DNA of 64,000 bases from assembly GCA_010015805.1 (NCBI GenBank), contig ML978124.1, positions 124,001-188,000 on the forward strand. The letters are read 5' to 3'. The position numbers and the translations under genes are program-made. Positions 1 to 63,703 of the stretch are shown piece after piece (positions within the stretch are counted from its first letter, which is position 1; every line of letters starts with the position of its first letter). A model generated the notes under the pieces. The model was not told the DNA's origin and searched no databases. It was given only the letters and a program-made list of their open reading frames with translations. The stretch comes from Rhizodiscina lignyota (lineage: Eukaryota).

Positions 1-2493
1 TCCGCAGCTCTCGAATTTCTGACTTGAAAAGGGGGTCCTTTGAGCTTACCTACTTATTCTGCTTCGAGATCGCTTTGCAAGGCTTTGCAATCTATCGACG
101 GACTGTTCAATTCTGGTACATCTGTCATCGGCTTCGGGTGCATATGTAATCGAGAGAACTGTATAGATGATGTCGCTAGATCTTCAGATCGGGCTGAGAG
201 ATTCTGATTGGAATATGGCATATATGACGAGCTGAATCACAATTACCCGCTGCAATGAAGGTGTGTTAGATTTGCGGTTGGTTATCTTTATTCGGCCGTC
301 AGGGTCCACTCACGTACATTAGAGCGTCCGCCATCAGACGGGAACTCATCCGACAGGCTGTGACGCTTTGCCACGGCCTGACTAAACTATCACGGTGATA
401 TTTTATCCCCAAGCGAAGTTAATGTTGTATCGCATTTCGGTATGTTTTCAACTGTTTCTTAGTACGAGAACACAAGAGTAAGATTTCGTTCTAAATCGAA
501 CGTCATAACGCAGACAGAACTCCTTAGTGCATGCAGGTTTCAGCATATCACAGAAGACCCGGGATCGAGGGCGTCAAAGCTGATCCCAACCATCTCTACA
601 AGGATTCGAATTCCAGTGAGATATTCAACGAACTATAAAGGTAGTTATCGTCGTTTGGCTCATGGATTCTCAAGCGAGATGCTATGAGAGCTATTTGCTC
701 GACTTGTCATCCACCCAGAAACGAAAGTCGACTTGATACCTACCCACAATATAAGAAATCAGTGTTTGGAGCACATGCAGCAAGCTCACCGTGATCTAGA
801 TGCCTCCAGGGTTGAGATCCTCCTTCAACTACCGTCCCTTGGCGCTGTTGTTGCCACTCATGTTCTTGAACATCGTGGCGTCAGACCAATTGACTGTAGC
901 TCACCGCTTCGAGCTCGTCGAGCAAATGGCCTGCTCCTGACGTGTATGAACAGCTCCCCATGCCGTATCTATGCACAGGATCACGTTAGCTTCTGTTGAC
1001 CGGTCGTTTCCTTCACGGTGATCGATCCCGATCGATCCAAATGGCTGCAGCAGAACAAAGAATCTGCGCAAGTGCGATGTCCCTTCTAGTACCGTGACAC
1101 CATTCTGTTATGGTGTGGGAGGTTGTTGAATCGAACTTTCTTCTGTCAAATTATTTGCCGCTGATGCTGGAGACTGGATTGGGAGGTGAGTGGCCCTGGC
1201 ACCTTCTTCACGGGACGTACGATGACATATTCCGGGAGAGCAGCGGATCCCAGAAATACTTAAAGCGCATATTAAGAGATGATTCAAATTGGTCGTGGTG
1301 GCTGTTTTCAACCTGCAGTATGAATCAGAACGGTACAGTTCGACTCTCATCGCCATGATCGACACACGTATTGATGAACCGGATTGCGAAGAAATAGCTC
1401 TGAAGAGTTCTTGACTTGAAGGCCGAAGGCCGGGACTTCTCAGGGACTTCAAGAATACTCGAAACATGAGCAGAACTGAAACATAAACAAAAGGACATCT
1501 TCGACTTAGAGTTGTTTCCGAAAGCAGACCATATGGTCTTCAATCAGGAATGCCATAATAAAGGGGACAGAAATCATCATTGGGCATGGTCATGGATTCC
1601 GTCACATCCCGCGTCGACAGTTGCGAAGGAGATGATCTTGTCCTTGCCTCTCAAAATGTTCATCGACAAAAGGCTTGTTGGCGGTTTTCACAATGAAGTT
1701 ATCGCCTAGAGCCTGTTGCCCGGTTCCGATGTTACCAGGGAATGAAGGTTTCGATATGGGGCGAAAGATGGATCGATGTCGGACTCCAGGTTCATTCAAC
1801 TGTCAACATGCATCAATCGTCCCTGGCATAGGCGAGCCATTAGTCGCGCTGCGATGCAGGATGGCGTTCTGTTCCACAATGAACAAGATTTCTGACGCGT
1901 TCGGCCGCAAACTCGTTAGTTCTCGACGACGATGCTGGAATGAGGGAGGTGAGAAAGGAACGAATTGCCCCGACCACGTTCGGGCGAATAAACGTTGGCG
2001 CTAAATCGCGGCTTTCGGCCGCTCGGCCGATTTCGGTTTGGCGCTCAGAACTCAATCTCTCCAGCGTCGTAAATCGAGCCGGGACATCATGGGCAATTGG
2101 AAATTGCATGTTCATGAAGTAAGATACGTTTCATATCGAACCTTAGTAACTTGTTTGCTCATTACCCCTTACATCGATCGATTTGTGCCTGTGTAACGCG
2201 TTCTTTCTTCTACCGCGTCTGACCCGTTCGGGATTCAGCCTCGTATTGCACACAGCCTGTATATGCGGCCTCCCACGTCGCCTTCCGCGCTGGGCCAACG
2301 GAGTTGTGCTACTGCTGCAGCTATGGGCCAATCTACAACTCCCCACGATCCGTCTTCTGGCAGGTGATGGGCGCATCAATTGAGCGCCACGTTTACCCTC
2401 TCTCGGAGGAGCCGCGGAACAGACGTTCGTGTACTAGAGGAACATTCTCCATTGCTTCAATTCTTCATCCTTAATTTTCTGCGTACATTCGAT

Positions 2494-4095
2494 ATGGGGG
2501 TTTCTATCTTAAACGTCCTCCTCTTAATTCCCGTTTTTGTCGCTCTCATTGCATACCGCCTGATCTTTCACCCGCTCGCCAAGTTTCCCGGCCCAAAGCT
2601 GGCGGCTGCAACACAATGGTATGAGTTTTATTGGGATGTGGTTCATCATGGAAAGCTAGTATTCAAACTTCGAGAACTGCACCAGAAATATGGGCCTATC
2701 GTACGCATAAGCCCTCGAGAGCTCCATATTCAGGACTCGGAGTTCTATGATGAGCTCTATGCGCCGAAGAACCGCAAACCTGACAAAGACACGGAATGGG
2801 TCAAATTCTCCATGCCTGGGTCGATATTCTCCACTGCTCCTCATGAGCTGCACCGCATCCGGAGAGCTCCTTTAAACCCGTTCTTCTCGAAACGATCCGT
2901 TGCCCAACTGGAGTCTCTTATTGCGGAGAAGATTGAGAAGCTCCGCAACCGGTTCGAGAGAGCTAGCGATACTGGAGAAGTCATACTCCTTGATGCCGCG
3001 TTCATGGCTTTAACAACCGATGTGATTTCAGATTATGCATTTGCACACGAGTGGAACTATCTCGACGAGCCGGACTTCAACCGTCAATGGCTCCAGACAA
3101 TTCGTGGAGTCTTCCAGAGTGGACAGCTTGGGAGACACTTTCCATGGATGCAAGATTTCATGCAGCAGTTGCCGCGTTCTTGGGTGAAGATTCTCGTGCC
3201 ACCACTCTATTATATACTGGAATGGAGAGAACAGGTCAAGCGAGAGATCGCAAAAGTATTTGAAAGCAAAGATGACGAAATGAAGCCATCGCGTCGGACC
3301 ATTTTTCATGAGCTCAAGACCAGCGATCTGCTGCCGCAAGAGTTGACATTGCAGCGGGTCGCTGATGAGGCGACGATCATTGTGGGCGCTGGAGCCGAGA
3401 CGACCGCGAGGACTCTGATGCTCCTGATGTTCAATTTGTTCACTCACGAAGATATTCTCCGGAAACTTCGGGATGAGCTCAGCAATGAAGAGACGCACAG
3501 GACGAAATCAGGAAGCGATGGTACCATTCTCACGCATCTGGAACAGCTGCCATATCTTGTGAGGCGTCTGTCTTCAACGTTTATATCTCATGCTGATTTT
3601 GTTCCAGTCTGCAGTAATCCAGGAGGGCCTCCGGCTCAGTTACGGCGTGACAACGCGGCTGCCACGCGTTGTAAATGAACCACTCCAATATCGAGAGTGG
3701 ACCATTCCACCACACACACCAGTCTCCATGGAGCCAGTTTCTGTGCTTATTGACCCGAAGATATTTCCACAGCCACATGCTTTCAAACCAGAGAGGTGGC
3801 TCGGCGAACAGCGACTTGACAGGTATCAAGTTGCTTTTAGCAAAGGAAGTCGACAATGTATTGGGATCAAGTAAGTTCTATATCATCCAGGTTGTCGAAC
3901 AGATGCTCACTGCTGATTTCCAAAAGCCTAGCGTATGCCGAATTGTACCTCACAGTTAACGCGCTCGTTTCACAGTTCGATCTGAAACTGTACGATACGT
4001 CTTACGAAGACATTCGGATGGAGCACGATTTCTTCACCGCCGCTCCAAAACTTAACAGTAAGGGAGTCCGAGTTACTGTGAGAATGGTTGCATGA
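2494..4095 (+). CDS. Cytochrome P450 monooxygenase (trichodiene oxygenase/CYP58-like), 3 exons
   Basis: N-terminal TM anchor followed by HPLAKFPGP, I-helix AGAETT, K-helix EGLR, PERW, and heme motif FSKGSRQCIG. Introns 3559-3607 and 3871-3926 (GT..AG) join the three ORF-track pieces in frame. Confidence 0.95.
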
Positions 4096-10184: not shown

Positions 10185-13100
10185 TCAAACATCTCCGATC
10201 GTCCTCAGCGGGACATACGTCCCCCTCTCCCTCTCGCCACCTCTCCTCCCCACCGACAGAAGACTCATCAGCCTCTCCCACCTTCCAGCACCCCTCCCCT
10301 CCTTCCTCGCCAACCGCGCGCCCTCCACAAGCGCATCCATAACCTTCTCATCACCAAGCACATCCTCCTCCCTCAACCACCTCGGGCGCTTCCACCACTT
10401 CAGCGCAAGACTGCTAGCCACAACACTCACACTGCTGCACGCCATCGCGGCGCCAGCAGCCATCGGATGCAGGCTATATCCCCAGGGCAGGAAAAAGCCC
10501 ATTGCGAAAGGTAAGCCGATGACGTTGTACCCACACGCCCACACGAGATTCGCCTTGATGCGGCGGAAGATGGCGCGCGAGAGGTTCAGACTCGCTGGGA
10601 CAGAGAGCAGGTCGGTTGGGTTCATGAGCACGATGCTCGCTGCTTCCATCGCGACATCTGTACCCGAGGATAGGGCAATGCCCACGGCGGCAGTCGCCAA
10701 GGCGGGCGAGTCGTTAATGCCGTCTCCGCACATGGCGACCATCTCGCCGCGACCTCCCTCGGCGATCGGGCGCTGCAGCTCCTCGACGATGCGCTGCTTG
10801 TCAGCGGGGGTGGAGCTCGCGTAGACATCTTCTGGCGCGATGCCGACGGCAGCAGCGACGACGAGCGCGGGGGCACGCGCATCACCTGTGACGATAGACG
10901 CCGTGATACCCATGCGCTTGAGCGCAAGGATGGTCGCGGCAGCAGAGGGCTTGAGGGTATCTGAGAGATGCAGGGCACCGGTGTAGGTGGGGTAGATGGC
11001 CGTGTGGATAGTTGTTGTGCCGGCGCTTTGAGCAGGCTGTTTGCCGGGTTTAGACTTGGAGAATGTCAGTGCGGTAGGTGTGGAGAGGTCGATGTTAGAA
11101 GATTCTTCGTCGGTGGTGGGAACGTCGATGCCTTGGCTGCGGAGGAAGGAGGCGTTACCGATGAAGACGCGGTGACGGGTGTTGGATGGATCTGCGGCTG
11201 CTTGTACGGTTGCAGAGATACCCTTGCCGACGACGGCCTCGAAGTCTCCAATGCTACCATCAAGAACACCATCAGGGCCAAGACCCAGGTGCTCCTTGGC
11301 TGAGAGGACGATGGCTTTGGCAATAGGATGCTCGGAACCCATCTCGGCAAGACCGATGATTGTCCACCAGAGCTTCTTCTGGGCGTCGGAGGTTGCAAAG
11401 GTGCCTTTGATATTAGACTCTGAGACGGCCATCTTGCCAACTGTAAGAGTGCCAGTCTTGTCAAGGACGACGTGTGAGATCTTGGTCGCAGTCTCAAGGG
11501 TAGCGCCACCCTTGATGAGAATGCCTTGTTCAGCTCCAACACCAGTACCAACCATCACTGCAGTTGGCGTGGCCAGGCCAAGCGCACATGGGCATGCAAA
11601 GACAATGACAGCAATGCAGAGCTTGACGCAAACCATCGTCTTGCCACCACTCGTGACTTCCAAGAAAATCGGAGGAGGACTGACCAGAGCATGGCTGAGA
11701 ATCATCCACGAGACGAACGTCGCAAGACCAAGCGTGAGGATGATCTGTACGAAATACCCAGCAATCTTGTCAGCCATTCTCTGGATTGGCGCTCGAGACG
11801 TTTGCGCCTCTTGCACCAATCTCACGATTTGGCTGAGCTGGGTATCTCTTCCTGCGCGAGTGACGACGAAATCCATGCGTCCAGCACCATTGACAGTGCC
11901 AGCCATGAGTGCAGTGCCGACTTTCTTGTGAATGGGAACCGGTTCACCAGTGACCATGGACTCGTCAACATAAGACTCGCCACGAGTGACTGTGCCGTCT
12001 GCTGGAATCTTGTCGCCAGGCTTGAGGATGACGACATCGCCAACTTCAATAAGCTCGGTTGCGATGACTTTCTCTTCCGAAGCATTAGCTGAGAGACTGG
12101 ACCGAGCATCCTTCTCGGTCTTTTCATCCCACTCTTCCGCAGCCTTTGCTGCCGCAATTGGATCTGCGTAGATAGTTGCCATCGAGGGAGCCAAGTTCAT
12201 CAAGCGGGAAAGAGCCTTCGAGGTTTTGCCCTTAGCACTATTCTCCATGTATCTGCCCAAAGTGATGAAAGTGATGAGCGTCGAGCTGGTTTCGAAGACG
12301 GTGCTCGGTCTTGTGTGTGGTGGCGCAATGATAGAAACGATCATAGCAGCACAGCTGAAGAAAAACGCCGCACTGGTGCCCATAACTACCAGAACGTCCA
12401 TGGTAGGAGATCCATGCTTGATCGATTTGTACGCAGAGACGTAGAAGCGCCGTCCGATGCCAAATTGTACAGGAATGGTGAGAATCATACAAACGATATC
12501 CCCGAGGTATAATCCGGGTACGAGCAGGCAAATAGAGCCGTAGTCTAAGAATGGCAGGAACGCTGGGAAGACCATAGCGGTCAAGAAAACGGGTATCGTG
12601 AACATAAGAGATTTCCAGAACGCGGATTTCCACTCCATGATTTCTTTCGTCTTGGCGAGAGACTCGAGTTGTGCATCTTTATCGTCCGAGTCGGCGAGGA
12701 GGGCATTGAATCCAGCGCCTTCGACCGCTTCGACGATGGCGCGCAAGCCGGCCTTGGATGATGTGTATGTTACAGTGGCTTGGTCTGCTGAGAAGTTTAC
12801 AGTGGCGGTCGTCACGCCTGGTATTGACCTAAGAGTCGATTCAAGGCTGATAGAGTCAGTTGCGTCTTTCAGGCCAAAGAGGTTGAGCTTGGCCGTTGCA
12901 TTTCGAGATGAGGTCTGTGCGGTACCATCGACCGAAGAGACGATCCTGGCATCAAAGCCACGATCTTCAATGGCTTCGACGATTTGTGCTGCCGTGAGTT
13001 TGGTTGGATCGTGAATGATGACAGCCCGTTCTGCAAGCAGACTGATATTGAACTGCATAACACCATCCACATCCTTGAATCCACCTTCGACTGCAGATGT

Positions 13101-13802
13101 GCATGCTCCGCAGGTCATGCCCTCAACGGCGACAGTGGTTGTGAGAGTCTTCTGCTCAGATTGTTTCCGTCTCGACTTCTTTCGCGACGACTGTGGTTCG
13201 ACAATCTTCGTCGCCAGCACCTTGGCATCGAATCCGGTGTCCTCAATCGCCTCTGCAATCTTCTCTGGTGTGATGATCTTCGGATCGTGCTCGATAACTG
13301 CGCGCTCGGATAGGAGAGATATGCTGAAGTTTGTGATTCCTGCAACGCCTTTGAATGCGCCTTCGACAGCAGATGTACATGCACCGCATGTCATGCCTCC
13401 AACCTGGACGGTCGTCTGGCTTAACCTCGGCGTAGTGTCCTCTTCCTCGTCATCGCTCTCAAGCAGTTCTGCGAAGTCTTCGTCTTGCGCAGAAGGTGTA
13501 TCTGTTGACAGCACCTCCGCCTCGAAGCCACGATCCTCAATCATCTCTGCAATCTTCTCGGGTGCAAGGATTTTCGGATCGTGCTGGACGACGGCGCGTT
13601 CCATGATCAAGCTCACAGAAACATTTCCGGCGCCTGCGACACCCTCGAACGCACTCTCGACTGCAGACGTACATGCTCCACATGTCATTCCACCCACTCT
13701 CAGCGTCGTTGTTGCCATGTGTGCCGTCTGCAAACCGCTCTTCTCGGACTTCGATTGTGCGCCAGACTCTCGGGTCGAGACTGGTTGGTATTTAGGGGCC
13801 AT
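10185..13802 (-). CDS. ccc2: Copper-transporting P1B-type ATPase (Ccc2/CtpA type), 1205 aa, intronless
   Basis: Three GMTCGAC metal-binding domains plus a fourth degenerate one, TGE actuator, CPCALGLATP, DKTGT, SEHP, GDGINDSPA, TM7 YN and TM8 MACSS. Confidence 0.96.
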   Translation of the reverse strand: MAPKYQPVSTRESGAQSKSEKSGLQTAHMATTTLRVGGMTCGACTSAVESAFEGVAGAGNVSVSLIMERAVVQHDPKILAPEKIAEMIEDRGFEAEVLSTDTPSAQDEDFAELLESDDEEEDTTPRLSQTTVQVGGMTCGACTSAVEGAFKGVAGITNFSISLLSERAVIEHDPKIITPEKIAEAIEDTGFDAKVLATKIVEPQSSRKKSRRKQSEQKTLTTTVAVEGMTCGACTSAVEGGFKDVDGVMQFNISLLAERAVIIHDPTKLTAAQIVEAIEDRGFDARIVSSVDGTAQTSSRNATAKLNLFGLKDATDSISLESTLRSIPGVTTATVNFSADQATVTYTSSKAGLRAIVEAVEGAGFNALLADSDDKDAQLESLAKTKEIMEWKSAFWKSLMFTIPVFLTAMVFPAFLPFLDYGSICLLVPGLYLGDIVCMILTIPVQFGIGRRFYVSAYKSIKHGSPTMDVLVVMGTSAAFFFSCAAMIVSIIAPPHTRPSTVFETSSTLITFITLGRYMENSAKGKTSKALSRLMNLAPSMATIYADPIAAAKAAEEWDEKTEKDARSSLSANASEEKVIATELIEVGDVVILKPGDKIPADGTVTRGESYVDESMVTGEPVPIHKKVGTALMAGTVNGAGRMDFVVTRAGRDTQLSQIVRLVQEAQTSRAPIQRMADKIAGYFVQIILTLGLATFVSWMILSHALVSPPPIFLEVTSGGKTMVCVKLCIAVIVFACPCALGLATPTAVMVGTGVGAEQGILIKGGATLETATKISHVVLDKTGTLTVGKMAVSESNIKGTFATSDAQKKLWWTIIGLAEMGSEHPIAKAIVLSAKEHLGLGPDGVLDGSIGDFEAVVGKGISATVQAAADPSNTRHRVFIGNASFLRSQGIDVPTTDEESSNIDLSTPTALTFSKSKPGKQPAQSAGTTTIHTAIYPTYTGALHLSDTLKPSAAATILALKRMGITASIVTGDARAPALVVAAAVGIAPEDVYASSTPADKQRIVEELQRPIAEGGRGEMVAMCGDGINDSPALATAAVGIALSSGTDVAMEAASIVLMNPTDLLSVPASLNLSRAIFRRIKANLVWACGYNVIGLPFAMGFFLPWGYSLHPMAAGAAMACSSVSVVASSLALKWWKRPRWLREEDVLGDEKVMDALVEGARLARKEGRGAGRWERLMSLLSVGRRGGERERGTYVPLRTIGDV

Positions 13803-26229: not shown

Positions 26230-28035
<1,806 letters not shown>

Positions 28036-28211
28036 AGTCGTGAGACATGGATATTAATCTGTCGTCGGCTTTCGGACGACCATACTTCTCATGGCGGCAT
28101 CGCATTTGCTCCAACTGCCGCATCGATAGTTCCTCATCTCATGACTTTCCATCCTTTCACCACTTCCTCGAGGATCCAGAGCTTTGCAGTGCACGACATC
28201 ATAGAATGTCG

Positions 28212-29066
28212 TTAGTCCGAAACAGCATCATCGTCATCCGATAAGTAAAAGTCCACTTCTCCATCCAAAGAGTTCTCGGTACGAGTGTCATCGTCTTCAC
28301 CTAGGGCAAGCGTTTTGGCATTTGCCCTCTGTGGCGCTCCAATCTTGACCACCTTCTTGATCCCACCCTGCGCCCTCTCGTACCTGTATGAGATTTTCAC
28401 CACATTGTAGCTCACAGCAAACACTTGCTCAGTAGCGACGGTTTCCGAGACGTCAACGCCGGCCTTTCTTGTTGTTTTAGGTGCTATATTCGGATTACCG
28501 AAAGCCATTGGTGCGCCTGCGATTGCAGTGACTGGAACAGTGACGTTAATCCCGACACTTCTGGCTTTGGTCATGCCTCGCGTCCACTTCGTGCCGGTGG
28601 TGGTGAGAAAGCCTGTTACAAAGTACGCGTGGTTCTTTCCGCTCCTTGCAAACAGCTTCTCCACATCCGCGGAATAGTGATCATTGCTCATCAACGTGTC
28701 GAAAACGTCGGCGGGATCGTGCCCAAGCACGTATCTTTTGACCTCGTCGCTTTCGAGTTCAACTCGGAGTTCCGTTTCTCGGCCAAGGTCCAGGCCAAAT
28801 AGATCGCTGAGGCCAACAGAAATTGAGTTTTCTCTTGCGGTTGTGAGGATACTATGTGCATCTGTGCTGATGATTGGTGCTGGAAGAAGCGTTGGAATGA
28901 TGTCTTCTGGATTGTGCTTTGGTATCAGACTGCCGGAGGTTGGAGCTAGAGGCGCAAACTGCTCGGCTGGACGTAGCTTATGAGAAACAATGCGGCCGAG
29001 CAAAGTAAGTATAGTATCGGAGGGAAGCGGTTCAGGGAGTAGGAAAAACCGGCGAGGTGAAGTCAT
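28212..29066 (-). CDS. Gasdermin-like (RCD-1/HET-Q1-type) pore-forming protein, 284 aa, intronless
   Basis: Size and ordered motifs typical of fungal gasdermins: FFLLP..LGRIV..P, a beta-rich core, AYFVTG, a Gly/Ala-rich hairpin, VFAVSY..V, then LAL-G and a 29-aa acidic tail. Adjacent to a protease gene. True start is ATG 29066 (the track extends from a GTG). Confidence 0.8.
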   Translation of the reverse strand: MTSPRRFFLLPEPLPSDTILTLLGRIVSHKLRPAEQFAPLAPTSGSLIPKHNPEDIIPTLLPAPIISTDAHSILTTARENSISVGLSDLFGLDLGRETELRVELESDEVKRYVLGHDPADVFDTLMSNDHYSADVEKLFARSGKNHAYFVTGFLTTTGTKWTRGMTKARSVGINVTVPVTAIAGAPMAFGNPNIAPKTTRKAGVDVSETVATEQVFAVSYNVVKISYRYERAQGGIKKVVKIGAPQRANAKTLALGEDDDTRTENSLDGEVDFYLSDDDDAVSD

Positions 29067-29681
29067 TTGCGTGGGCAAACAATCAAAGACGCAATATCCT
29101 ACGGCGGGCTTAAAGTGGCTCAAGAATGACTGAAGCTTGCGGATCGGCAATCTTTGCACGGGCAAGGCACCTATTCTTTGAGGAATGAATGTCAAGAACA
29201 ACGTCGGGAAGTTTCCAATTGCACGATGGTACTGCGATATGTATGCCCTTCTCTCGAGGTCTAAATAGGAGCTTCTCACCGAGGTAAGTACGCACCGATG
29301 TCTGAGCCACAACGCCACTTGAAGAGTTCAAAGCTAGGCTCAGCCGCTCAATTTAGCTTGGCCGGCAGGCAGCAGGCTCCAGCGCCCCTATCAGAACGGC
29401 GACAACCGCACTTTACCGATAGCAAGCATGCTTACGACCTGTGGAAATGGGATTTCTAAAGCCACTCTATACTCGTATCTTCTGTCGGAGCACGAATGAT
29501 CAATATGAGTTGATTGAGGAACGAAGCTCTCAAGGAGAAGTGCACGGTTATACATAATACAAGAGCGCTAAGACGCACTGATCACTTCCTGGCATCTTCA
29601 TATCGAGCTTGATAGCCTTGATTGCTCTCCACACTTTCTGTTTGACGTAGGGGCTCTCTATCTATCAACGTTCCGCTCACC

Positions 29682-32600
29682 ATGTCCTCGGCAAGTCGTA
29701 ACACAATCCAGATAATTTCGACGTCTGCCGACAAGAGCCATCAAGCGACCGAAAACTCTAACACGACCCGACGCTGTTGGTATGTGGATGTCGTTCCACC
29801 AAGTCCCGCAAAGCCTCACACTGTTCTCCTGTCCGATCCATTCAATGAAGAACAAAACTCCGAATGCTCATGGTACCTCAACAAGTATGTGCAGCACGAA
29901 CCCTTCTCCGAAAGGAGAGCAAAAGAAGCCTTGCAACAATTGAAAACATATGGTACTCGACTCATTCAAGACCTCGAACTTCGTGACGTTGTTGAAAAAC
30001 TCTCCAAGTCCGGTGAACCCATAACAATATCTGTTGCCAACAACGGTCCTTCCGAAGACAACATATATATTGCCTGTACTGGGAAATTCTCGAAGACCCC
30101 GAAGTATGGGAAGTCAATGGGCTGGAGTTGATCATCGTTCGAGACTCACAATCCGATGTGCCCGCAACAAACTCTCCGCAACTGGACCTGGTTGGACATC
30201 AAATCAATATCCTCCTCGTTCTGGCACGTGATTTGCGCAGAGAAGTCTCATTACGAGAAGAGATCAATCCACATTTGGCCTTTGGCGTCTTGTTCAGCCT
30301 GAAGAATGAACTTCGGAAGCGAAATACACCCATCCAGCTAAATATAAACATTGTTCGCCCGGGTAGCTTCGAAGCATTGGAATCACACCTCAAAGAGACC
30401 GAAAACCAACATGGAAAAGGATTTTTTCACATTGTGCATTTTGATTTACACGGAATCATATCTACAGATTCCCAAGCAAACCTTTTGTTCAATTCTTCGT
30501 CTCCAAGCGATTTCGTGACCCAACCGGAGCCTGTCGAGAAAGTTGCAGGAATTCTTCATCAGTTTGGGATCACCTCGGTGGTTCTAAATGCCTGCGACTC
30601 AGCCAACACAAGCCGGGGAGTCGAAGCAAATGCTTCAGATCAATTCATCAACCAAGGAGTGATGAACGTCCTTGCCATCTCGTTCAAAATAACTTCCACT
30701 GCTGCCGAAGTCTTTCTTCATTCATTCTATCACTCTCTCATCCTGGGTGGCCATGGATTTTACTCAGCAGCACAGCGAGGACGACGTGCTCTCCGTGCCG
30801 ACATTTGCCGGGATGCACGATTCAACCTCAAAAGAGATCTCAACGACAGCTTCGTACCAGTTACGTACACTTCCGGAAATGAATCAAAGTTCCAAATTCC
30901 AAATTCGATCACAGCGAGCGAAACCGAAGATAGTTCGATACGGACAAAGACAAAGCAGATCTGGACATCAGCGCTCGAAAGCCAGCTCCTCGCCGAAAAG
31001 CTTATTGGACGAGAGTTGGACCTGCTTCGACTTGAAAAGAAACTAATTGCGGAAAAGTGCCTACATCTCTCTGGCCGAGCTGGTGTTGGCAAGACCTCCC
31101 TCCTTATTCATGCCATTGAAATATGGATGGGTACTTCATTTTTTGAAGTTTTTGTTGGGATTACTTTTCCTCCATTGGACTTTAACAACTATAAAAGCCC
31201 AATATTCGCTTCATTTGATGACTTCCTACAAGCATATATCAACGAATTGCCACTGCAATCTGCAGACAAAGAAGAGCTTTCAAAAGAATCACCACCAATT
31301 TCGGAACCGGCACCGGTATACTTTACACGCAGGATTCACCATCTTCTCTCTACTGTTAACTCGCTTCTGGTTTTTGATAGCCTTCATACACTCTACGTCG
31401 GAATGAAAATCAGCGATGAGATTGACAAGCTGGTGTCAGATATAAATCTGTTCATGGCAACACTTTTGACATTCTCTCGAGAAGTTGCGAACGAGAAGAA
31501 ATTATACATTATTTTCTCCTCTCGATGTAACAAGGTTCTTCATCCAGAGTTGGTGAAAGGAGTCAAATGGGACTTCTCAGATGGGCAATTTGATGTCGAG
31601 AGTCTGCCATTATCGGCATCAATGCAGCTGGCTCGGTCAGCCATTTCCAACTTAGCTCCCAAATCTCCTGAGCTCGCAGATGGAGATATGGCAGAGCTTG
31701 AACTTCTTCTTGGTCTCTTGGACGGAAACCCATCTGCTATCCTGCATGTTATGCAAGGGAAATCCGCAACCCAAAGTTGGGCCGAATATCGTCGCCAAGT
31801 CCATCTTGGAATTCTTCCCCCTCTTGGTGAAGACAAAAATGAACCTGTCTATGGGGAAATCGGTCGTTTTGTTGGTCGTTTGTCCGAAGAAGTAATTTCC
31901 GGACTGATCTACTACAGTCTGTTCTGGAAAGAGGGCATGCCATTGACATCAACTATAGCAGAACTCCATCTACTTGGACTCATGTCTTTTACCGAAACAA
32001 CAGTACATTCGCTTAACTTTACAGCTGATAGGGGATTTATCGATTGGAAGCGAGCAGGGGACGATGCCGAAATACCTTGGATCCACCCGCTGATGACGCT
32101 TTGCGCCAGGTCCTACGCACAAGAATACGCCCAGAACCAAACCAATGTGGCCACCTCACCCACAGAAGTTATTTCTTCTGCTGTGCTTGCTGCCTTGGGG
32201 CAATCATACTCAATTTTGATACCAGAAGACAAAATAGTCGCCATCAACAAAGTCCCGCAGTTATTCCTTACTTCGGTTGAAAAGCATAGCATGAAGCGGT
32301 TCATTAGCGTTTACCTCAAAGGCTACAATTACAATGATGCCTTTTCAAACTGGGCGAAGGAATCTGCGAATTTAGAGACTTGTATTGCCATCTGCTTGCG
32401 AAATCCGCCTTCGTCCATCGATCAGCTGCCGCTTGATTTCTTTGGTCAATGCGTTTCTGGTATCAGAATGACTGGCTCTCCCGCTGAAATTAGCCTGTTC
32501 AGTAAACTCTTCGTCGAATTCTTCCAGCTTGTCATCTCCATCAACAAAGGCCTTGCATTCGGCCCTGATGACGATAGTCAGCGGTTCTCTTTGGTCATGT

Positions 32601-34316
32601 CAACGTGTCTCGCCGCCATGTATAACAGCGAGCTTCTGCAGAAGGAAAAGTTCAGCGAATACAGTCAACTGGCTGTTGATATCATCAGGGCGTCGGAGAA
32701 AGAGTTTGGCCCGTACCAAAACCATCGCGTTCAATACATGAAAGGCCTTGCTCTGAGGTACCGGGGAATGAGCCTAATCACAGAGGGCAAAGCAGAAGCT
32801 GCCAACGAATATTTCCAGGAGATGCTAGACTTGGAAGGCGGCCTGCTCCAGGAACCAGAAAAGTTGGCCTTTGGTTTCACGAAAGATCAAGTTGACGATG
32901 TCATTCAGAACCTGGGTCTGACGGGTGAAGAAGCAGCCACTAAAGAAGAGCAATTGAAGAACATGGCTTCCGGCTCGTACTGGACCACTTACATGAAGAG
33001 CCGACGCAACATCATGCGGGTCACGACCTTGCCAGCGATGGCGGAGAAAGAGGGAGACTCAGTTCTTTCTTCAAGGGCATTTCGGGGAATCCTTGCAAAA
33101 GCCAGTGCAGGAATGAAACAGGTGCTTGAGCAGGGAGAGGCCATGGGCATGCAGGGCATCGAGCAAGACACAAGATGGTGGCCAGAAGGGGTTGACTTGA
33201 ATTACTACGTTCGAAGACAGGCCGATACCACAGAGAAACTTCGAGCGTTCGAGGACGCAGTGAACTCTGGAGACTCCGCAAGAGTTCAAAAGCTGCAAAG
33301 CGAAATGTTTATGCAGTCTTTAAAGACGCTCGATATGGAAGGTGCTTATTCAATTCTGGCTGAAATGCACAAGTCACTGGGCACGAATGCTTCTGACAAC
33401 GCATCAATATTACCATTGAGCATGGGCAGAGATCTTATGGAAGTTGGTCAACATGCTCAAGGGAGATAAAGGAGAAGTTACGGGAGAGCAAAACCAAGAG
33501 ATCGCACAAAGCGCACTTTCAAACGCGATCGATATTGCGACAACCCGAGGCGACGATCCAAATGCAATTGAAGCTCTTAAGATTTGGAAGGAACTCCCAA
33601 GCACTAGAATGTCGGGGATACAATTTACAACTCGAGAAGTAGAGAGGGTACAGAAGTTCATGAAACTGCAACTTGAAGGGGCTTCGAGTATGCAAGTCTC
33701 GCCGAGCCGTCGAGCAGATATCCAGCTGAAACATGCCCAACTCATGATGAGCTACGAACAAGCCCTGTTTAGTGGCAATGTAGATGAGACAAGGGACTGT
33801 CTGAATGGTCTGGAAGAGTTCATTCAATTGCCTGAAACTGGTCATTATGGCGCTCTATACGATGATGAATGGTTTCACAATGCTCGTGGACGCCTGGAAA
33901 GCCTCGATCAATTTGCAGAGGCATCGATAAAGTGGAACGAGCATATGTCAGAAAACAATTTCCAGGCTGCTCTCGACATCATTTCTGAATTTGAGAAAGG
34001 GCTTGATCCGGCCATCGCAATGGACGCTAGGCTTGTTCGTTCAGAGGTCTTGGGTGAAATGGAGCTAACGGCGGTCAAGAATTGGCTTTCTATGACCCTT
34101 CAACAGCTGCCTGTCAACCCACATAAGGCTGGATATCGAAAAACTTCTGAAGATCTGGAAACCATTTCTAATTACTTGCACCAATCAGACAGAATTGCAA
34201 GTACCGAAAAGGGACGAGAACTCATAGACACTGTTGCTTCGAAATTAGCTGTGGTGAGCTTGCTGAATGACATGACTCCTGAGGAACCCGAGCCTCGAAG
34301 ATTTGTCCTAATGTAG
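29682..34316 (+). pseudogene. CHAT (caspase-like) protease + NB-ARC-like P-loop NTPase + helical/TPR-like NLR, ~1543 aa when reconstructed; two frameshifts
   Basis: LSDPF..WYL N-terminus, YWEILEDP, catalytic HFDLHG (His 30449) and VVLNAC (Cys 30593), Walker A GRAGVGKT (31073-31096), Walker B LLVFD, LDGNPSAI, WIHPL, TPR-like helices. Frame breaks at 30063-30070 and ~33440. Confidence 0.85.
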
Positions 34317-34566
34317 ACAGAATGCATTGCCGGTTTCTGTGGCGTAGAATGTCGAGTCAGCCGCAAGGAAGCGAAGCTGAGCTAGTCAAGCTTGTATATA
34401 GAGGCTGGTGTGCATACCTTTAGGAACGAGAAGTGCATTCAATCCCATTAGTGGAGATCGCAAGCTTGAGAATGAGATCCTTTCGTCATTGCAGGTACTG
34501 ACGCGATGCCATTCGACAGCATGATATATATTATAGCCAAGATCGATGGATGACCCCTCGAGGCTC

Positions 34567-36339: not shown

Positions 36340-37528
36340 ATGACCACCAACAAGACTGCCCCGGTGCTCTCAATCGGTACCCACACATGGAATACAACTC
36401 CAGAGAGCCAGTCGTCAATCCAAGAAATTCTAAATGTGATGCGCAAGCATGGAATTAAGAAATTAGACACCGCAAGATCATATGTTCGTCCGAACCAGAC
36501 CCCGAAGCTTGGCAACAATACCACATGACTGACGAGATCTCCAGGGACAAGGCGAGTCCGAAGCCGTCATTGGAAATCTCGGCCTTCCCAAAGAATTCGA
36601 AGTCGCGACCAAAGCCGCGACCGGAACTTGGGAAGGCGCGGGGAAAAGAGAGCATGTTCTTGAAGGTGCACAGTTGAGCTTGGATGCTTTAAGGATTTCC
36701 AAAGTAGGTAACAGTTAATCTCGTTTTGGAATATGGTGATGCGAACGGTCCGGTAATAGTTGTGATACACAGATACCGATTTACTTCTTGCATGCACCGG
36801 ATGAAACCACGCCTGTAGCGGATACTATGAGCGCGATCCAAGAGCTGTACGAACATGGACACTTCGAAAAGGTGGGCCGGGTGACTTGCTGCCCCGTGAA
36901 GTGCCACATGCTGACCGCATCAAAGTTCGGGCTATCCAACTTCACCCGAGACCAAGTTGTCGAACTACATTCATATGCGAAATCAAATGGTCTCGTACTC
37001 CCGACTGTATATCAGTCAAGCTACAGCCTCGCAGTCCGACTGAATGAGGAGGGTCTCTTCCCGACGTTGCGCGAGCTTGGCTTCTCTATCCAAGCGTATT
37101 CCCCAATGGCTGCCGGGCTCTTGGCCAAAACTCCAGAATACATCGAACAGGGTAAAGGAAGCTGGGATCCTAAGACGCCTTCAGGTATTGTCTACAACTA
37201 TCAGTACAACAAGCCGGAGTACATGCAGATGCTACGCGAGTATGCCGCCCTTTCCGAAAAGTCCGGTGTTAGTCGGACTGGACTTGCGTACAGGTGGATC
37301 AGGTACCATTCCATGTTGGATGGTAGCTTGGGTGATGAAATGATTATTGGCGCAGCTTCCGCTAACCAGTTGGAAGAGACTTTGGAAGAGCTGGAAAAGG
37401 GGCCATTGGAGCCTTGGGCCGTAAAGATAATCGATGAGCTGTGGGATGTAGTGAAAGGAGTTGCTCCAGTAGACAACTTGGAAGCGATACGACATTTGGT
37501 TAAGAAACTCTCCGCTGGAAATTCGTAA
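36340..37528 (+). CDS. Aldo-keto reductase (aflatoxin-aldehyde reductase/AKR7-like), multi-exon
   Basis: LDTARSYG..SE, VATK, YLLHAPD, FGLSNF, PTVYQ..Y, AYSPMAAGLL, IIGAAS..QLEE. Confidence 0.93.
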
Positions 37529-48161: not shown

Positions 48162-49379
48162 CTAAGCACCGCGAGAGAAAGGCTCGTACGCCAAATTGAT
48201 GTCTCGAGTCGCCCTTCCTCCGACTGACTGCATCTGAATACCCCTCGGTCCATCATGTGCATATCCTTGCGGCTCATGCTCTTCATCGTGCTCATGAATG
48301 ACGTTTCCTTGCACACCGTCTGCTTGGAACAAGAGCTCGCGGTCGTCGTCGGCACTGCCGCGGCGGCTGTGCGCACCAGTTGCGACGACTTTTGGCTGTC
48401 TCTCAATCTGAGTGTATCGCGCTGCGCCGAACGTCGGGATGCGCTGGAGCACTGCAGAGAAAGGAGTCTTTCGCGATGCAGCAGCTTGTCCCTTTTCTGG
48501 CTCGATATCTCTGGTCGACAGTTGAAGCTTGCGTGTGCCGGAGTTACTTCTCGGTGCCCTTGGCCTTCTTTGCCTGGCGGATCGGGATCGGAAGACCAGG
48601 ATCAGGGAGACGGCGAGAGCCAAGAACGTTGCGATAAAGCTGACAACGATTGTCTTGCTTCCGAAACTAGCATCGATACCATTTTTGCGGAATGCAGAAT
48701 TTATTTCGTTGGCGAGCTTCGAGAAAATGATTGGCTCGGTAATGGAAGCAGCGAGGAGTAGGACACTGGCGAGGAAGGCCAGAACAGCACTGAATATGCC
48801 AACGGCAGCTTTGCGAGACGCAAAGCATCCAGTTATCATTGCGAGGAACAACAGGACGACTGAGGCATAGTATGCGCCTCCCATGAATGGAGAGATTGAC
48901 TTGTAGGAGTTGGTCGCACTCAGTAGCCCGGAAGGAAATGAGCCTTGGAGGGCCGTTTTCTGCAAGTGGAGATCCGAAACTGGGTTGAAGTGGAAGCCAA
49001 TTTTTGGCGAAGTGCAGTTCTGCTTGTGGCCATATTCGGAGCAGGCAGCTAGAAGGCCAACAGTGTATGAGTCGCCGATTCCGAGTGATCCCTTGGTGGC
49101 ACCCCTTCCAACCCAATCGGTACCAGTCAAGATGTAGAGATCATTCAAGATGGTCGCGTTGGAGAGCTTGGAGGGAACATCCAGCCATTGTATGTTAATC
49201 TATCGGATCAGTTAATATGGGCTACTTCTGATGGGGAACCTGAATGCGCAAACCTTGAGAAAATAAAAGTCCGTGAGCAGATGGGGATGCGATCCAGCTA
49301 TCACAACAATGACAATGAGAATGATCGAGATCAATGAGAGTGCGAAGGAAATGATGTTTGAAAACACGTGCCCGGCCAT
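48162..49379 (-). CDS. SUR7/PalI-family 4-TM membrane protein
   Basis: N-terminal TM, DFYFLK, LGIGDSYTVGL...C...C extracellular loop, three further TM helices and a polar tail. One intron near 49253-49200. Confidence 0.8.
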
Positions 49380-54247: not shown

Positions 54248-55891
54248 TGTGTCGATGGTTCAGCCCTATCTTTCAAGTACCGATCCGCAGGAGTATGACT
54301 TGTTGACAATTGGGACGTGCTGCGCAAGAGTCAAGGAGCGAACATTGAAGATGTCGATACGGATTAGGATAAAGGTTGCGGTTGACGCGTCTCCTTCCAA
54401 TATGCCTCGGGACGGCAAGTACGCGTTCACGTGCGCCGAATGAAGCAGCAACTCAATGCACATCGAAGATAGCTACCTATACCCGTTCACTGGTAAAGGT
54501 CTCTGGCGGCTGGCCCTTTTTAAATAATAATAAAAAAGAACGATTAATTGCGTTGGATCGATAACGCTTCCTGCACTCAGCCGAGCGATAGCCTCAGTGG
54601 CGTACATCGAGTCACTTCGAGAACGTGCACGGCATGCTTCATCTCATCAAGTAATGGGATTGTTGCAAGGCCCTTTGTATCACTGCTGATACTCCCTTTA
54701 GATTGCGTGCTTCCCTTATGCTCTTTCTTACAATAATCAAACCCTCAGCTTCCATTTCATCTTCCAAGTACGTTGCGACAGAGCGAGCGTCGTTGCAACA
54801 CTCCGTCAAACAAAATATTGGGTTTCTTAGGCCTCACAAAAAATTGCCACGGTTGGCAAAATGGTGTGACACCCAAGCTCATGCCGCTAACATGCTCCAG
54901 AGCTGATCCATTCTGATAGAGCTTCAATTACGAAAGGACCGGCTTCCTCAGCTCTTGCAAATTCACTCCAGTTGCATAGAGTATGAAATCTTCCATTTCT
55001 TTACTCCGTTTTGCATTTCAAAATATTCTCGTCGCCGTACCCACACGCTTTTCGAGTGGGGAATAGAAGCACAGACGACTTTTATCGCACTTCCTGCTGC
55101 GTCGCTTGAATGCCAGCGTACTTCCTTTCGATGAGATTGACTACCAGAGACAGTAGATGGGACAGTATCTTCTCACAGTGCAGAGCGGCAACTGCCACAA
55201 GGAGAGAATCTGGGATTGTCCCCGCGAATATGACAACAGATTGACGCCTCGAGCAATTACCCCTCGTCGCCACCCGTGCTGTGCAGCGTAGTACACATGA
55301 ATCGTCTTAGCCATGAGTCGCTTCGGCCGCACTTGGTTTCTGGTTCCCTTGTCATTGCAGCTCCAGTCTGAACTCATATGTACGATAGAAGGTGTAAAGA
55401 GGAGAACTGCACCTTTTCCGAAATGTTGTTAATCATCGTCGTTCTCTGTGTCTCCTTTTCCGTATACAAATTCGGCTAGCGCGATCTCCTCACAACGAAA
55501 TCTGCCGACCTCCACCTCCACCTTTCTTCTCCTCTACTTCCAATTCCTTGTTTCACCAACTTGTACAACCGAAATCCCTTGGCCGGGGAGAACGCCGCCT
55601 AGAATTAAATTATTAATGTAGCTTTCCTGAGCATCAAGCGGGGAAGCCAGGGAAAATAGCCCTTTATTCATCTAGACCTACTGGTTGTTCAACATGGCCC
55701 ATGCAGGTACCTAACGCTTTGCGTAGTTCGCGGGGTTAAAGACGTCACAATGTCTCTTTCTCTGAGAGTACATTTATATGCTTGGCCGCGAACATCTGCT
55801 TGGTATTTCTTATTCCAGCCCTCTTGGACCAGTTATTTGTCACAAGGTGCGTGATCGTACCAATCAACAGATTTCATCGCAGTCTGGCAAA

Positions 55892-57001
55892 ATGATGTTT
55901 CGATTCCTTCTGCCAATTGGCATCTTCATGTTGGCCAATGCCGCCGCTCAATACTTACAAATCAAAAATGAATTGACACTTGAGACACCGTGCAATGGAG
56001 TTAGCACGCTACCAGATGGGCGCCTTTTCATCTTGTACGCTCGTGTGGATGGCTCCCATGGTCCGACTGTTCTGGAGTGGAAGAACGGCAAAGGCGTGCC
56101 TTACCCAAACCTGGAGTGGAACTCATACTCCACGGACATGAAGCTGGACCCAGCCTCGCATTTTGTACGAATCAACTCTATTCGAAATGGCCCAGATGGT
56201 TCGCTCTGGATTGTCGACACTGGTTCTCCGAGTTTTGGGGCAGATGTCATCCTTCCTGAGGGACCGAAGCTGATCAAGATCAACACCAAAACAAATAAAG
56301 TATCGCGCATCTACCCAATGGGCAACGTGACGCGCTACAACAGTCTACTGGATGACGTTCGCTTTCACGATGCTGCTGGAAAGGCCTACCTGACCGATGC
56401 CGGCTCACCTGCTCTCATCGTGCTGGACCTGGCAAGTGGCGATGCTATTCGCGTGCTTGAAAATGATGTCTCAACTTCAGCTTCAATGCCCACTTCCGGA
56501 GAAGGCGTCCTAATGGGCAACATCAACGGGGGTTTGCAATACATTTATGCTGATCAGCTGGAAGTTTCGCCGGACGGCAAATGGTTCTATTATCAGCCCG
56601 CATCTGGCGGCATGCACAAGATTGAGACCAAGTATCTCAATAATGCCTTTTACAACTCCTCATTGGCCGGTATACTCTCTCAATACGTCGTCCCGCATGC
56701 TTTGACTCCGTCAACTGGCGGCACCGCAATTGATGCCGAGGGCAACATTTACGACAGCGACACAGACCGACAGGCCATCATGAAGATTGCGCCAAATGGT
56801 ACGATGACGACATTGATTCGAGACAGTCGCTTGCTGTGGGTCGATGCGATGTGGATCGACTCCAAGAAGCGCCTCTGGATGCCGGCGGCCCAGCTCAACC
56901 GTGGTGAGCCTTTCAATAAAGGAAAGAACCATATTAAGCCACCGCTTCACGTTTATTCAATGGACATTGGGGTTGGCCCGTCACCCATTGACCACGCTTG
57001 A
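55892..57001 (+). CDS. Yellow/major royal jelly protein family beta-propeller, secreted, intronless
   Basis: Signal peptide, PYPNLEWN, LWIVDTG.P, GPKL..I, LDDVRF, AYLTDAG, AD.LEVSPDG, GG.AIDAEGNIY, D.RLLWVD. Confidence 0.9.
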   Translation: MMFRFLLPIGIFMLANAAAQYLQIKNELTLETPCNGVSTLPDGRLFILYARVDGSHGPTVLEWKNGKGVPYPNLEWNSYSTDMKLDPASHFVRINSIRNGPDGSLWIVDTGSPSFGADVILPEGPKLIKINTKTNKVSRIYPMGNVTRYNSLLDDVRFHDAAGKAYLTDAGSPALIVLDLASGDAIRVLENDVSTSASMPTSGEGVLMGNINGGLQYIYADQLEVSPDGKWFYYQPASGGMHKIETKYLNNAFYNSSLAGILSQYVVPHALTPSTGGTAIDAEGNIYDSDTDRQAIMKIAPNGTMTTLIRDSRLLWVDAMWIDSKKRLWMPAAQLNRGEPFNKGKNHIKPPLHVYSMDIGVGPSPIDHA

Positions 57002-61828: not shown

Positions 61829-63703
61829 ATGATTTCTCGAATGTTTCTAAGGGCACTTTGCGTGTTGCTATACGCCAATGGAGTCGTTAGTGATAACTCA
61901 GCGGGCCATCCGCATCACAAGCCCACTCAGGCCTCTTCAAGCTTTTCGTATAGCACATTTACTTATGCGCCGATGACTTCGAACCGATATGCTACACCAT
62001 TGAAATCGCCACTTGCTATTCCAACGCCATGGGCGCCGGAGTTTAGCAAGGTATCATCGTTGCTAGATGCCCACATCACTTACACGACGTATTCATTAGC
62101 TTCGGAGGCTACTACACGTAATGATGGTCAATATGGTCAAAGCGCGTATGCGGCCTTTTGGGCTAGTCAGAATTGGACATATACAGATAGCCCGCCGTTT
62201 ACGACGACTGTTTCCCCAACGCCAGTACCTCGCAGCGAACTTGTCTTCCCGCCACCGCTTCCCGTTGAACCAGTCGACAAGAATGAGACAAATGGATTTA
62301 CTTTACCGTCCAACTTCGTCTGGGGTGTTGCGAGCAGCGCTTGGCAAATCGAAGGTGGGCTTCAGTTTGATGGAAGAGGTCCGTCTGTCGAAGACGGCAT
62401 CGGCACGAACCCGGGTGAGTGATCTCGAGGAAACATGAATACCCAGAGCTACACTAACCTTTTGCGCAACTCAGGGGCCAATGACTCAAATGTAGACGCG
62501 ATGTTCTATTACACTTACAAGCAGGACATAGAACGTCTAGCTGAAATCGGCATTCCATATCTGTGTTTCTCCATCCCATGGACTCGTATAGTCCCATTTG
62601 GAGTTAAGGGCTCTCCCATCAATACTCGGGCGCTGGATCATTACGATGATCTCGTTAATGAAGCTATCGCTCATGGCATCACTCCGATCATTACCATATT
62701 GCATTATGATCTTCCAGTTTCAGTCCCTTATAGCGATCCGAATTTCAGCGATCACTATCTGTATTACGCCAAGCAGATCATGACACGCTACGGAGATCGT
62801 GTTCCGTATTGGGTCTCCATCAATGAACCAAATTTGCAGCCCGTAGACAATTCGCTGACGAACATCCTGGTTGCGCATGCCGATCTGTATGATTGGTACA
62901 AGAACGAGCTCGGCGGAACCGGCCAGATCACTATGAAATTCGCCAACAATCTTGCGATCCCACTTGATGCCAACAATCCAGAAGATATCGCGGCATCATT
63001 ACGGTATCAGGACTTCAGCCTTGGCATCATGAATAATCCCTTGTTCCTGGGCGCGCAGATTCCAGATTCCGTTCTAAAGACACCAGGCATCCAGATCGAT
63101 CCAATCTCAAAGGTCAATCTTTCTCATATTCACGGCAAGATCGACTTCTTCAGCTTCGATCCATACAGCTCTCAATATGTGAGCGCGCCTCCGGGGGGCG
63201 TTGAAGCTTGTGCATCAAACTCCAGCAACCCGCTTTGGCCCACATGCGTTGTGACAACCAACGATGCGGCAAATGGATGGCTCATCGGAGACGCCAGCTC
63301 CGTAGGTTACAGCTTCATCGCGTCTCAATATCGACGGGCCCAGTTCAACTATGTCTGGAATACGTTCAAGCCCTCTGGAATATTGGTGGCCGAATTTGGA
63401 TTTCCAACAGAAGGAGACCAGTACAAGGCGCTTGATGCGCAGCGATACGACCTGGAGCGCACGGTATACTATCAGGACTTCTTGACTGAAATGCTAAGGG
63501 CTATACATGAGGATGGCGTCAATGTCATTGGTACGCTGGCTTGGGCTTTCATTGAGACCAATGAGTTTGGGACATTTGACAGCCACTACGGATTGCAGAC
63601 TGTCAATCATACCACATTTGAGCGAACATATAAAAGAAGTGCCTTTGATTATGTAGATTTCTTCCACCAGCACGCTGAGAAGTCTGCGTCGGGCTATGCC
63701 TAA
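61829..63703 (+). CDS. Secreted glycoside hydrolase family 1 beta-glucosidase with a Ser/Thr/Pro-rich N-terminal extension
   Basis: FVWGVASSAWQIEGG, FSIPWTRI.P, acid/base INEP, nucleophile AEFG. Intron 62415-62474. Confidence 0.94.

Follow-up and report, generated by a model that had tools for sequence, protein, structure and literature searches.

The window analyzed here comprises 64,000 nucleotides of the genome of Rhizodiscina lignyota (contig ML978124.1, positions 124,001 to 188,000, of assembly GCA_010015805.1), and all coordinates given below refer to positions within it. Two divergent genes are the main subject. The first, on the minus strand (29066..28212), codes for a gasdermin-like protein, and the second, on the plus strand (29682..34316), for a CHAT/P-loop NTPase protein of NLR-like type. 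They are arranged head-to-head, the CHAT gene beginning on the opposite strand, 615 bp away from where the gasdermin gene starts, with a 615-bp intergenic region (29067..29681) between them. Within the gasdermin, a predicted pore-forming domain (residues 1-255; 28302..29066, minus strand) is followed by an acidic tail of 29 residues (G256-D284; 28215..28301, minus strand), presumed to be a peptide that is released or inhibitory. The two parts meet at a short motif, T252-L253-A254-L255|G256 (28299..28313, minus strand), where the predicted scissile bond lies between positions 28302 and 28301.

The gasdermin gene consists of 284 codons followed by a TAA stop, placed at 28214-28212 by counting codons on the sequence. 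Its N-terminus, MTSPRRFFLL, begins at the first ATG within a longer table-11 open reading frame (ORF), and agrees with the N-termini of homologs, which supports the 284-residue model and means that no intron is required. The C-terminal end reads ...KKVVKIGAPQRANAKTLALGEDDDTRTENSLDGEVDFYLSDDDDAVSD and is followed directly by the stop. The intact ORF scores 313 bits over residues 4-280 when compared with a profile of 21 homologs from which the query was left out. On the minus strand, the codons at the junction are ctt for L253 (28310-28308), gcc for A254 (28307-28305), cta for L255 (28304-28302) and ggt for G256 (28301-28299). The preliminary description of this DNA had placed the Gly256 codon at 28301-28299, which is exact by translation and codon count, and the translation likewise agrees with its account of TLAL-G followed by an Asp/Glu-rich tail of 29 residues (13 D/E and 1 K/R). 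Past the stop the same frame is open for 25 more codons (28137-28214, minus strand) and reads ...KLWILEE..., resembling the hydrophobic C-terminal motif of homolog tails. A premature stop that shortens the tail was considered but is not supported, readthrough (with X at the stop) scoring 314.2 vs 313.5 bits with a homolog-only profile, and the extension remaining unaligned. A 42-nt intron spanning the stop was rejected on inspection by eye, as its donor (GTTTCG) would be poor and its branch point too close.

Relatives of the protein are found in other fungi. A collection clustered at 90% gives 22 proteins, the best non-self match having 44% identity, with source names that include Cryomyces, Monosporascus, Hyaloscypha and Dactylonectria, while a library clustered at 50% gives 185 representatives at E <= 0.001, 101 of them at <= 1e-10. 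A Pfam scan of the gasdermin returned no family at E <= 0.01; PF26164 (Bact_GSDM), which occurs in 13% of the members of atlas look-alike clusters, is a lead only. The AlphaFold (AF2) model made from 22 sequences has a mean predicted local distance difference test score (pLDDT) of 69.5, and the model made from 98 full-length homologs reaches a mean of 84.4, with a predicted template modeling score (pTM) of 0.79. A Foldseek search of the PDB has gasdermins at all of ranks 1-16 (best E 5.3e-06). VIA-align, applied to the better model, has only gasdermins in rows 1-15: the RCD-1 pore of Neurospora crassa (8jyz_A) with Z 12.5, a root-mean-square deviation of 4.4 A and 209 aligned residues; RCD-1-2 with Z 11.5; bacterial gasdermin pores with Z 10.6 and 10.5; the GSDME, GSDMA3 and GSDMD pores with Z 7.6-8.9; and the Runella protein (7n52) with Z 6.0. 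At the sequence level, a profile of the 98 homologs matches RCD-1-1 in the PDB at E 7.6e-05 and RCD-1-2 at E 0.0041. Searches of PDB sequences with less input gave nothing of this kind: the single gasdermin found no gasdermin, only a chance prestin match at E 0.035, and a smaller homolog profile (A1) and P0150 gave no matches at all, HET-Q1 not being reached. Because of the structural ranks and the RCD-1-1 profile match, the protein is assigned, on the strength of the model, as fungal gasdermin-like and nearest in predicted structure to RCD-1; its earlier naming as a gasdermin is thus borne out by the fold.

The model made from 98 sequences shows long beta-hairpins (strands 65-85/90-113 and 159-176/197-210), and its best structural matches are gasdermins in the pore state. 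This means that the full-length protein has been modeled in an active-like shape rather than an autoinhibited one.

Both VIA alignments pair model residues 4..256 with RCD-1-1 chain residues 2..257. RCD-1-1 has 257 residues and acts without a C-terminal inhibitory piece (review, PMC12881547). As the alignment runs to the end of a naturally tail-less gasdermin, the modeled core finishes at L255/G256, and the remainder is an appendage. Just upstream lies a basic segment, K237-K251 (KKVVKIGAPQRANAK; 28314..28358, minus strand), with five K/R and no acidic residue, part of which is outside the range 28212..28320 that the preliminary description covered. There it was called a basic linker. The first word holds, the second does not: DSSP assigns a strand to residues 235-245, pLDDT is 93 for 241-250, a short strand or bridge occurs at 254-255 (all in the 98-sequence model), and homologs conserve the segment as GPPKRAKAxH, with P245 nearly invariant. 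Strand, confidence and conservation together suggest that the segment is the last beta-strand and turn of the folded core and not a free linker.

The junction itself is the most constrained part of this region. Among 118 full-length-like proteins, 98 could be aligned at column 255 with MAFFT, the other 20 being distant and unaligned there (inspected by eye, several of these have F|G or F|S together with acidic residues). All 98 carry F, L, M or Y at column 255 (F41/L30/M26/Y1), and 94 of them carry G, S or A at column 256 (G72/S12/A10/T2/M1/N1); the pairing of a large hydrophobic residue with a small one is kept family-wide. The two preceding columns favor L (253, 68/98) and A (254, 65/98). 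A second alignment, by hmmalign, was made with 167 retrieved proteins and a profile that was built from the smaller alignment A1 and already held the junction motif; 116 proteins have a residue at column 255 (F49, L33, M29, Y2, I1, V1, D1), and F, L, M, Y, I or V is found in 115 of these. Judged from the alignments, the motif is far beyond chance. After the junction, conservation collapses into a variable stretch rich in D and E.

Tails in this family vary considerably. Their median length is 50 residues (range 18-82), and the 29 residues found here make the seventh shortest of 116. The median acidic fraction is 0.36 among the 98 homologs, and 85 of the 98 tails carry a hydrophobic cluster. 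The tail of R. lignyota has such a patch, V271-D-F-Y-L275 (28242..28256, minus strand), which had been pointed out before as VDFYL, and which aligns with a DVFLVD-type patch in the nearest relatives.

The divergent neighbor is annotated as a protein of 1498 residues (P0168; source name, hypothetical protein NA57DRAFT_73836 [Rhizodiscina lignyota]) assembled from three frame segments, and 20 homologs of it were retrieved. A CHAT domain, already noticed in the preliminary description, is recognized by Pfam (PF12770, E 4.1e-09, 36.7 bits vs a cut-off of 24), and both catalytic residues are present. The histidine, H240 (codon 30449-30451), lies in the motif HFDLHG (30437..30454, plus strand), of which H236, D238, H240 and G241 do not vary among 17 sequences, and the cysteine, C288 (codon 30593-30595), in LNACDS (30584..30601, plus strand), of which N286 and C288 are invariant in the same 17. 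Further along is a Walker A/P-loop motif of the putative NOD module, GRAGVGKTS (31073..31099, plus strand), with G451 and K454 nearly invariant and G453 invariant. Pfam matches to this module are below their cut-offs (NB-ARC E 0.0089-0.012, AAA_16 0.043, nSTAND3 0.094). The C-terminal part of the product is long and helical.

The reading frame of the CHAT gene is disturbed. Translation from the ATG at 29682 stops at 30131, ahead of the catalytic residues, and the annotated model avoids this with a 50-nt intron (GTCCTT...AAG; 30046..30095, plus strand) that joins ...ITISVANN to DPEVWEV.... The DNA inside these coordinates looks like coding sequence: in the downstream frame it encodes HIYCLYWEILED, which carries the pattern IHxLxWELLE. 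A block s-I-H-x-L-x-W-E-L-L-E is present in 11/11 aligned homologs exactly where P0168 is gapped, and a 17-sequence alignment has W, E, L and E, each conserved at 90% or above, in columns without a P0168 residue. When homologs were compared with the window by tblastn, the high-scoring segment pairs (HSPs) of 11 of the 12 end in the upstream frame at 29963-30044 and start in the downstream frame at 30026-30065, the twelfth homolog being N-terminally short. On this evidence the change of frame lies at ~30045-30065, in or beside the run ACATATATATT, and since it takes place within ~20 nt there is no room for an intron. The donor GTCCTT lacks a G at +5, and no CTRAY branch site was seen in the 50 nt; for comparison, introns in the nearby sulfatase gene start with GTAAGC and GTAGGA and have stretches (CTGAA, CTAAT) that read as CTRAY-like. 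The DNA from 28000 to 34400 is identical, without a gap, to a run X1 contig that has a depth of 157, but this confirmation is not fully independent because X1 may be the source of the assembly. No RNA record was found for 28000-34400, X1 consisting of DNA-like contigs. The break is thus very probably a real genomic lesion, and the 50-nt intron is probably an annotation artefact laid over a pseudogene or a strain-specific lesion. As the break precedes the catalytic residues, and the first Met of the downstream frame falls after C288, the CHAT protease is likely to be non-functional in this strain, and the two-gene module is probably inactive or crippled here, unless the transcript is rescued somehow. 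A second annotated intron of 88 nt (GTGCTT...CAG; 33342..33429, plus strand) contains CTGAC, but the upstream frame continues across it without a stop for another 43 codons, as far as 33469, and homolog HSPs end around it, at 33340-33373; it may be real, or it may be a second frame break.

Pairing of the two genes extends beyond this genome. Nine metagenome loci with related gasdermins were available, and a head-to-head CHAT homolog (its N-terminus, on the opposite strand) is found at L001 and L005. No other locus of the nine has more than 1 kb of upstream sequence; the remaining seven have less than 0.9 kb, show no neighbor, and are uninformative. The gasdermin junctions at L001 and L005 read HLAM|G and HLAF|A. 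In the catalogue of Clavé et al. 2022 (PMC8851545), Dataset S1 gives CHAT partners for the gasdermins of Cryomyces minteri (TKA76810.1/TKA76811.1) and Monosporascus ibericus (RYP00338.1/RYP00337.1), and Dataset S2 labels TKA76811.1 and RYP00337.1 as CHAT + P-loop_NTPase. These two proteins share with the CHAT protein described here the N-terminal region, ...IHQLYWELLED..., FHFVHFDLHG and VLNACES, but in them the WELLE block is read through in one frame, unlike in the present gene. Two gasdermin homologs retrieved in this study, P0005 and P0007, come from the same pair of species and would be the gasdermins of that list. The name Rhizodiscina is absent from Datasets S1 and S2, while Dataset S3 has a row, with a lineage ending in Rhizodiscina, that lists four gasdermin homologs (PMC8851545). 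The present locus adds a further case to the gasdermin/CHAT clusters which that catalogue describes.

Two known systems indicate where such a protein may be cut. The HET-Q1 gasdermin of Podospora anserina loses ~5 kDa from its C-terminus when HET-Q2, a subtilisin-like protease, is present, and this is blocked by L237A and by F238A (Clavé et al. 2022, PMC8851545). Its toxicity depends on the exact end of the fragment, being present in 1-238, absent from 1-237 and only weak in 1-239, with 1-247 non-toxic and 1-233 partly toxic (PMC8851545). The scissile bonds are F238-A239 in HET-Q1 and L247-G248 in the Runella gasdermin, the latter cut by a caspase-like protease (Su et al. 2026, PMC13475620), and the F238 carboxylate is hydrogen-bonded in the HET-Q1 pore (PMC13475620). 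The Leu|Gly site given for Runella in the preliminary description therefore stands, but its Phe|Gly for HET-Q1 has to be changed to Phe|Ala. A small-P1' rule has also been described (PMC10153256). As for the protease, 19% of 1,884 fungal gasdermin genes are near a CHAT-domain gene, the CHAT domain belongs to the caspase clan, and in P. anserina the CHAT domain protein Q2L-6 processes its neighbor Q1-6 (PMC8851545).

By analogy with these cases, a mechanism can be proposed for the intact relatives of the two-gene module. A signal would switch on the CHAT/P-loop NLR-like protein, whose CHAT domain would then cut the gasdermin at h-L-A-[F/L/M]|[G/S/A], which in the present protein is after L255. 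The pore-forming fragment would then end in a hydrophobic C-terminus and be rid of the acidic tail, and fragment 1-255 would oligomerize into membrane pores, leading to cell death. That the tail inhibits the core, and that the CHAT domain is the cleaving enzyme, are both inferred from the known systems. The published sites in Runella (L247|G248) and HET-Q1 (F238|A239) agree with a cut after L255, and cleavage at L255|G256 is somewhat favored on present evidence. It should be taken as the best-supported guess. The motif itself probably mirrors what a gasdermin needs at its new C-terminus, because it reaches into clades that are mostly associated with S8 proteases. A more general scheme can be put forward tentatively, and is rather less probable than the cut itself: that fungal CHAT-NLR proteins are clan-CD peptidases with a large hydrophobic P1 (Leu/Phe/Met) and a small P1' (Gly/Ser/Ala); that the same bond, h-L-A-[FLM]|[GSA], would be cut in CHAT- and in subtilisin-controlled clades, two unrelated protease classes having converged because the gasdermin dictates its exact hydrophobic C-terminus; and that the acidic tail, instead of docking as a peptide, would use its charge to restrain membrane binding.

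Several observations weigh against cleavage after L255 by a CHAT protease. No computation made here locates the scissile bond, and the CHAT reading frame of R. lignyota is interrupted within the protease domain. The conservation of hLA[FLM] may be structural, these residues being the last core strand. According to the literature the motif occurs also in clades under the control of S8 proteases, and for that reason says little about CHAT specificity. Acidic residues downstream are conserved as well (columns 258 D51/E19, 259 D39/E23 and 260 D60/E30, of 98), so that a caspase-like Asp/Glu site a few residues further on is possible, and the basic positions upstream (R247 in 58/98, K249 in 52/98) could suit a metacaspase-like enzyme. 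The pore entry of HET-Q1 (9uv9_A) is matched by the 98-homolog profile at E 0.56, which is not significant. The tail has no further C-terminal ...F.L hydrophobic motif of the type common in homologs, pLDDT is ~50 after residue 260 (261-284) with no secondary structure, and the tail is undocked in either AF2 model, so that its inhibitory role is argued from analogy. A complex prediction for P0168 residues 100-420 with the gasdermin, in which alignments were unused, gave a score of 0.00 and a mark of 0.34, and speaks neither for nor against an interaction.

The interrupted frame raises the question of whether any cleavage by the neighbor takes place in this strain. The module could be a decaying or polymorphic relic, with the protease a pseudogene, and with the gasdermin silent, being lost, or served in trans. 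The position of the break upstream of H240 and C288, with no Met in the downstream frame until after C288, fits this idea, as does the annotated intron: its donor is GTCCTT, it has no CTRAY, and it removes a WExLE block whose conservation is 90% or above. With its 29 residues the tail is unusually short, and the four gasdermin homologs in the Rhizodiscina row of Dataset S3 suggest that paralogous modules may exist. Yet elsewhere the CHAT gene (4.6 kb) reads open, with an ORF of 1113 codons, and all 29 invariant columns of the 17-sequence alignment are kept, which means that any inactivation must be very recent; the gasdermin ORF is itself intact at 313 bits with the homolog-only profile, and the odd 50-nt intron may yet be spliced. 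Such a relic is an unlikely explanation, and as regards the gasdermin family it overlaps with cleavage after L255. One consequence holds for the earlier proposal of a Leu-P1 specificity for this CHAT domain: it cannot be derived at this locus, the CHAT frame being broken upstream of the catalytic residues.

A different site would be expected if the CHAT domain behaved like a typical caspase, cutting after an acidic residue in the downstream run (e.g. GEDDD|T, after D258-D260), TLAL-G then being structural only. Membership of CHAT in the caspase clan (PMC8851545) and the acidic columns 258 to 260 are in accord with this, and an Asp occurs within P2'-P6' in 83/98 tails. No acidic column is invariant for Asp, however, E, S and G substituting freely, and the caspase-like protease of Runella cuts at Leu|Gly (PMC13475620). 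The truncations of HET-Q1 are also unfavorable: with 1-239 already weaker and 1-247 non-toxic (PMC8851545), a fragment with three to five extra residues would probably make a poor toxin. An acidic P1 is accordingly regarded as quite improbable.

Cleavage could instead fall upstream, at the basic residues R247 or K251 in the manner of metacaspases or clostripain, removing ~33-37 residues. Arg or Lys at P1 is preferred by many clan-CD peptidases of fungi and bacteria, and K/R is conserved at columns 246, 247, 249 and 251. The partial toxicity of HET-Q1(1-233), which ends five residues before the mapped site (PMC8851545), also allows a shorter fragment. However, the segment is predicted to be folded core (strand 235-245, pLDDT 93 for 241-250) and should be poorly accessible to a protease, the cut would lose the most conserved residues, hLA[FLM], and HET-Q1 1-237 is non-toxic (PMC8851545), which leaves a basic P1 with very little probability. 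Even more doubtful is control of the RCD-1 type (by partner or allele, or by expression), with the tail a disordered appendage for solubility or localization and not a proteolytically released inhibitor, for although the nearest solved relative, RCD-1, needs no cleavage and the tail is undocked in the AF2 models, RCD-1 is tail-less whereas this family keeps its tails (116 of 18-82 residues; a hydrophobic cluster in 85/98), the conserved pairing with a protease gene argues for proteolytic control, and processing has been shown for the CHAT-linked Q1-6 (PMC8851545).

With cleavage after L255 as the preferred reading, the closest known systems can be compared. HET-Q1 is likewise a fungal gasdermin of ~280 residues with a short C-terminal inhibitory peptide (PMC8851545), and its cleavage follows a large hydrophobic residue that has Leu before it (L237-F238|A239), with the exact C-terminus mattering for toxicity (PMC8851545, PMC13475620). 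The difference is in the enzyme, an S8 subtilisin-like protease from the idiomorph rather than a neighboring CHAT-NLR, and in P1', which is Ala. Q1-6/Q2L-6, also of P. anserina, is the same kind of two-gene cluster of gasdermin and CHAT protease, for which CHAT-dependent processing and barrage formation have been shown experimentally (PMC8851545), but Q2L-6 is a TPR-CHAT protein with the protease C-terminal, while here CHAT is N-terminal and is followed by a putative P-loop NOD. The literature search found PMC8851545 as the sole paper on the Q2L-6/Q1-6 gasdermin. The Runella zeae gasdermin has the same P1/P1' pair, Leu|Gly (L247-G248), releases a tail of ~21 residues, and packs the hydrophobic residues before the cut into the active fold (Johnson et al. 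2022 via PMC13475620). It differs in being bacterial and palmitoylated at an N-terminal Cys, and in having a tail that wraps the core in the crystal structure (PMC13475620); the tail described here is longer, strongly acidic and undocked in the models, and the structural match is Z 6.0 only. RCD-1-1/RCD-1-2 of N. crassa (8jyz, 8jyx, 8jyy) are the closest solved structures (Z 12.5, 11.5, 10.5), and RCD-1 is the sole significant sequence match in the PDB (E 7.6e-05), the end of RCD-1-1 (257) corresponding to the end of the core (256). RCD-1, in turn, has no tail and no protease, and is activated by co-expression of two alleles.

In fungi, gene pairs of gasdermin and protease correspond to the machinery of pyroptosis, and the CHAT branch ties them to the caspases. 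The literature searched, which included the available part of a 2025 review (PMC12881547), contained no mapping of the cleavage specificity of fungal CHAT domains and no mapped cleavage site for a CHAT-type fungal gasdermin. The junction motif gives a precise prediction, a cut after F/L/M preceding G/S/A, which bears on whether the caspase-clan enzymes governing gasdermins outside animals are specific for hydrophobic residues instead of Asp. As for the present genome, the gasdermin is an ordinary representative of a family already catalogued, and its CHAT partner is probably mis-annotated (an intron over a frameshift) and may be dead.

An arylsulfatase-like gene (26233-28035, plus strand), whose last exon matches Pfam Sulfatase at E 5.9e-32, lies tail to tail with the gasdermin gene, its end being 177 bp from the gasdermin stop. 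It has short canonical introns at ~26450-26500 (GTAAGC...CAG) and ~26719-26775 (GTAGGA...CAG). Among the window ORFs that were scanned, no second gasdermin or protease was noticed. Ordinary fungal genes, as judged by Pfam, occupy 2380-3675 (P450), 10188-13802 (a P-type ATPase of the copper type, carrying four HMA domains), 36788-37525 (aldo/keto reductase), 48165-49148 (SUR7/PalI), 55778-56998 (MRJP-like) and 62435-63700 (glycosyl hydrolase family 1). The promoter region shared by the gasdermin and CHAT genes holds a short sequence that is repeated elsewhere in the genome: a stretch of ~35 nt at 29481-29519 is found as well at the end of a second contig of run X1, of 31.9 kb, and at that of six contigs of 31-33 nt (depth 320-500, vs 157 for the contig of the locus), each having one mismatch.

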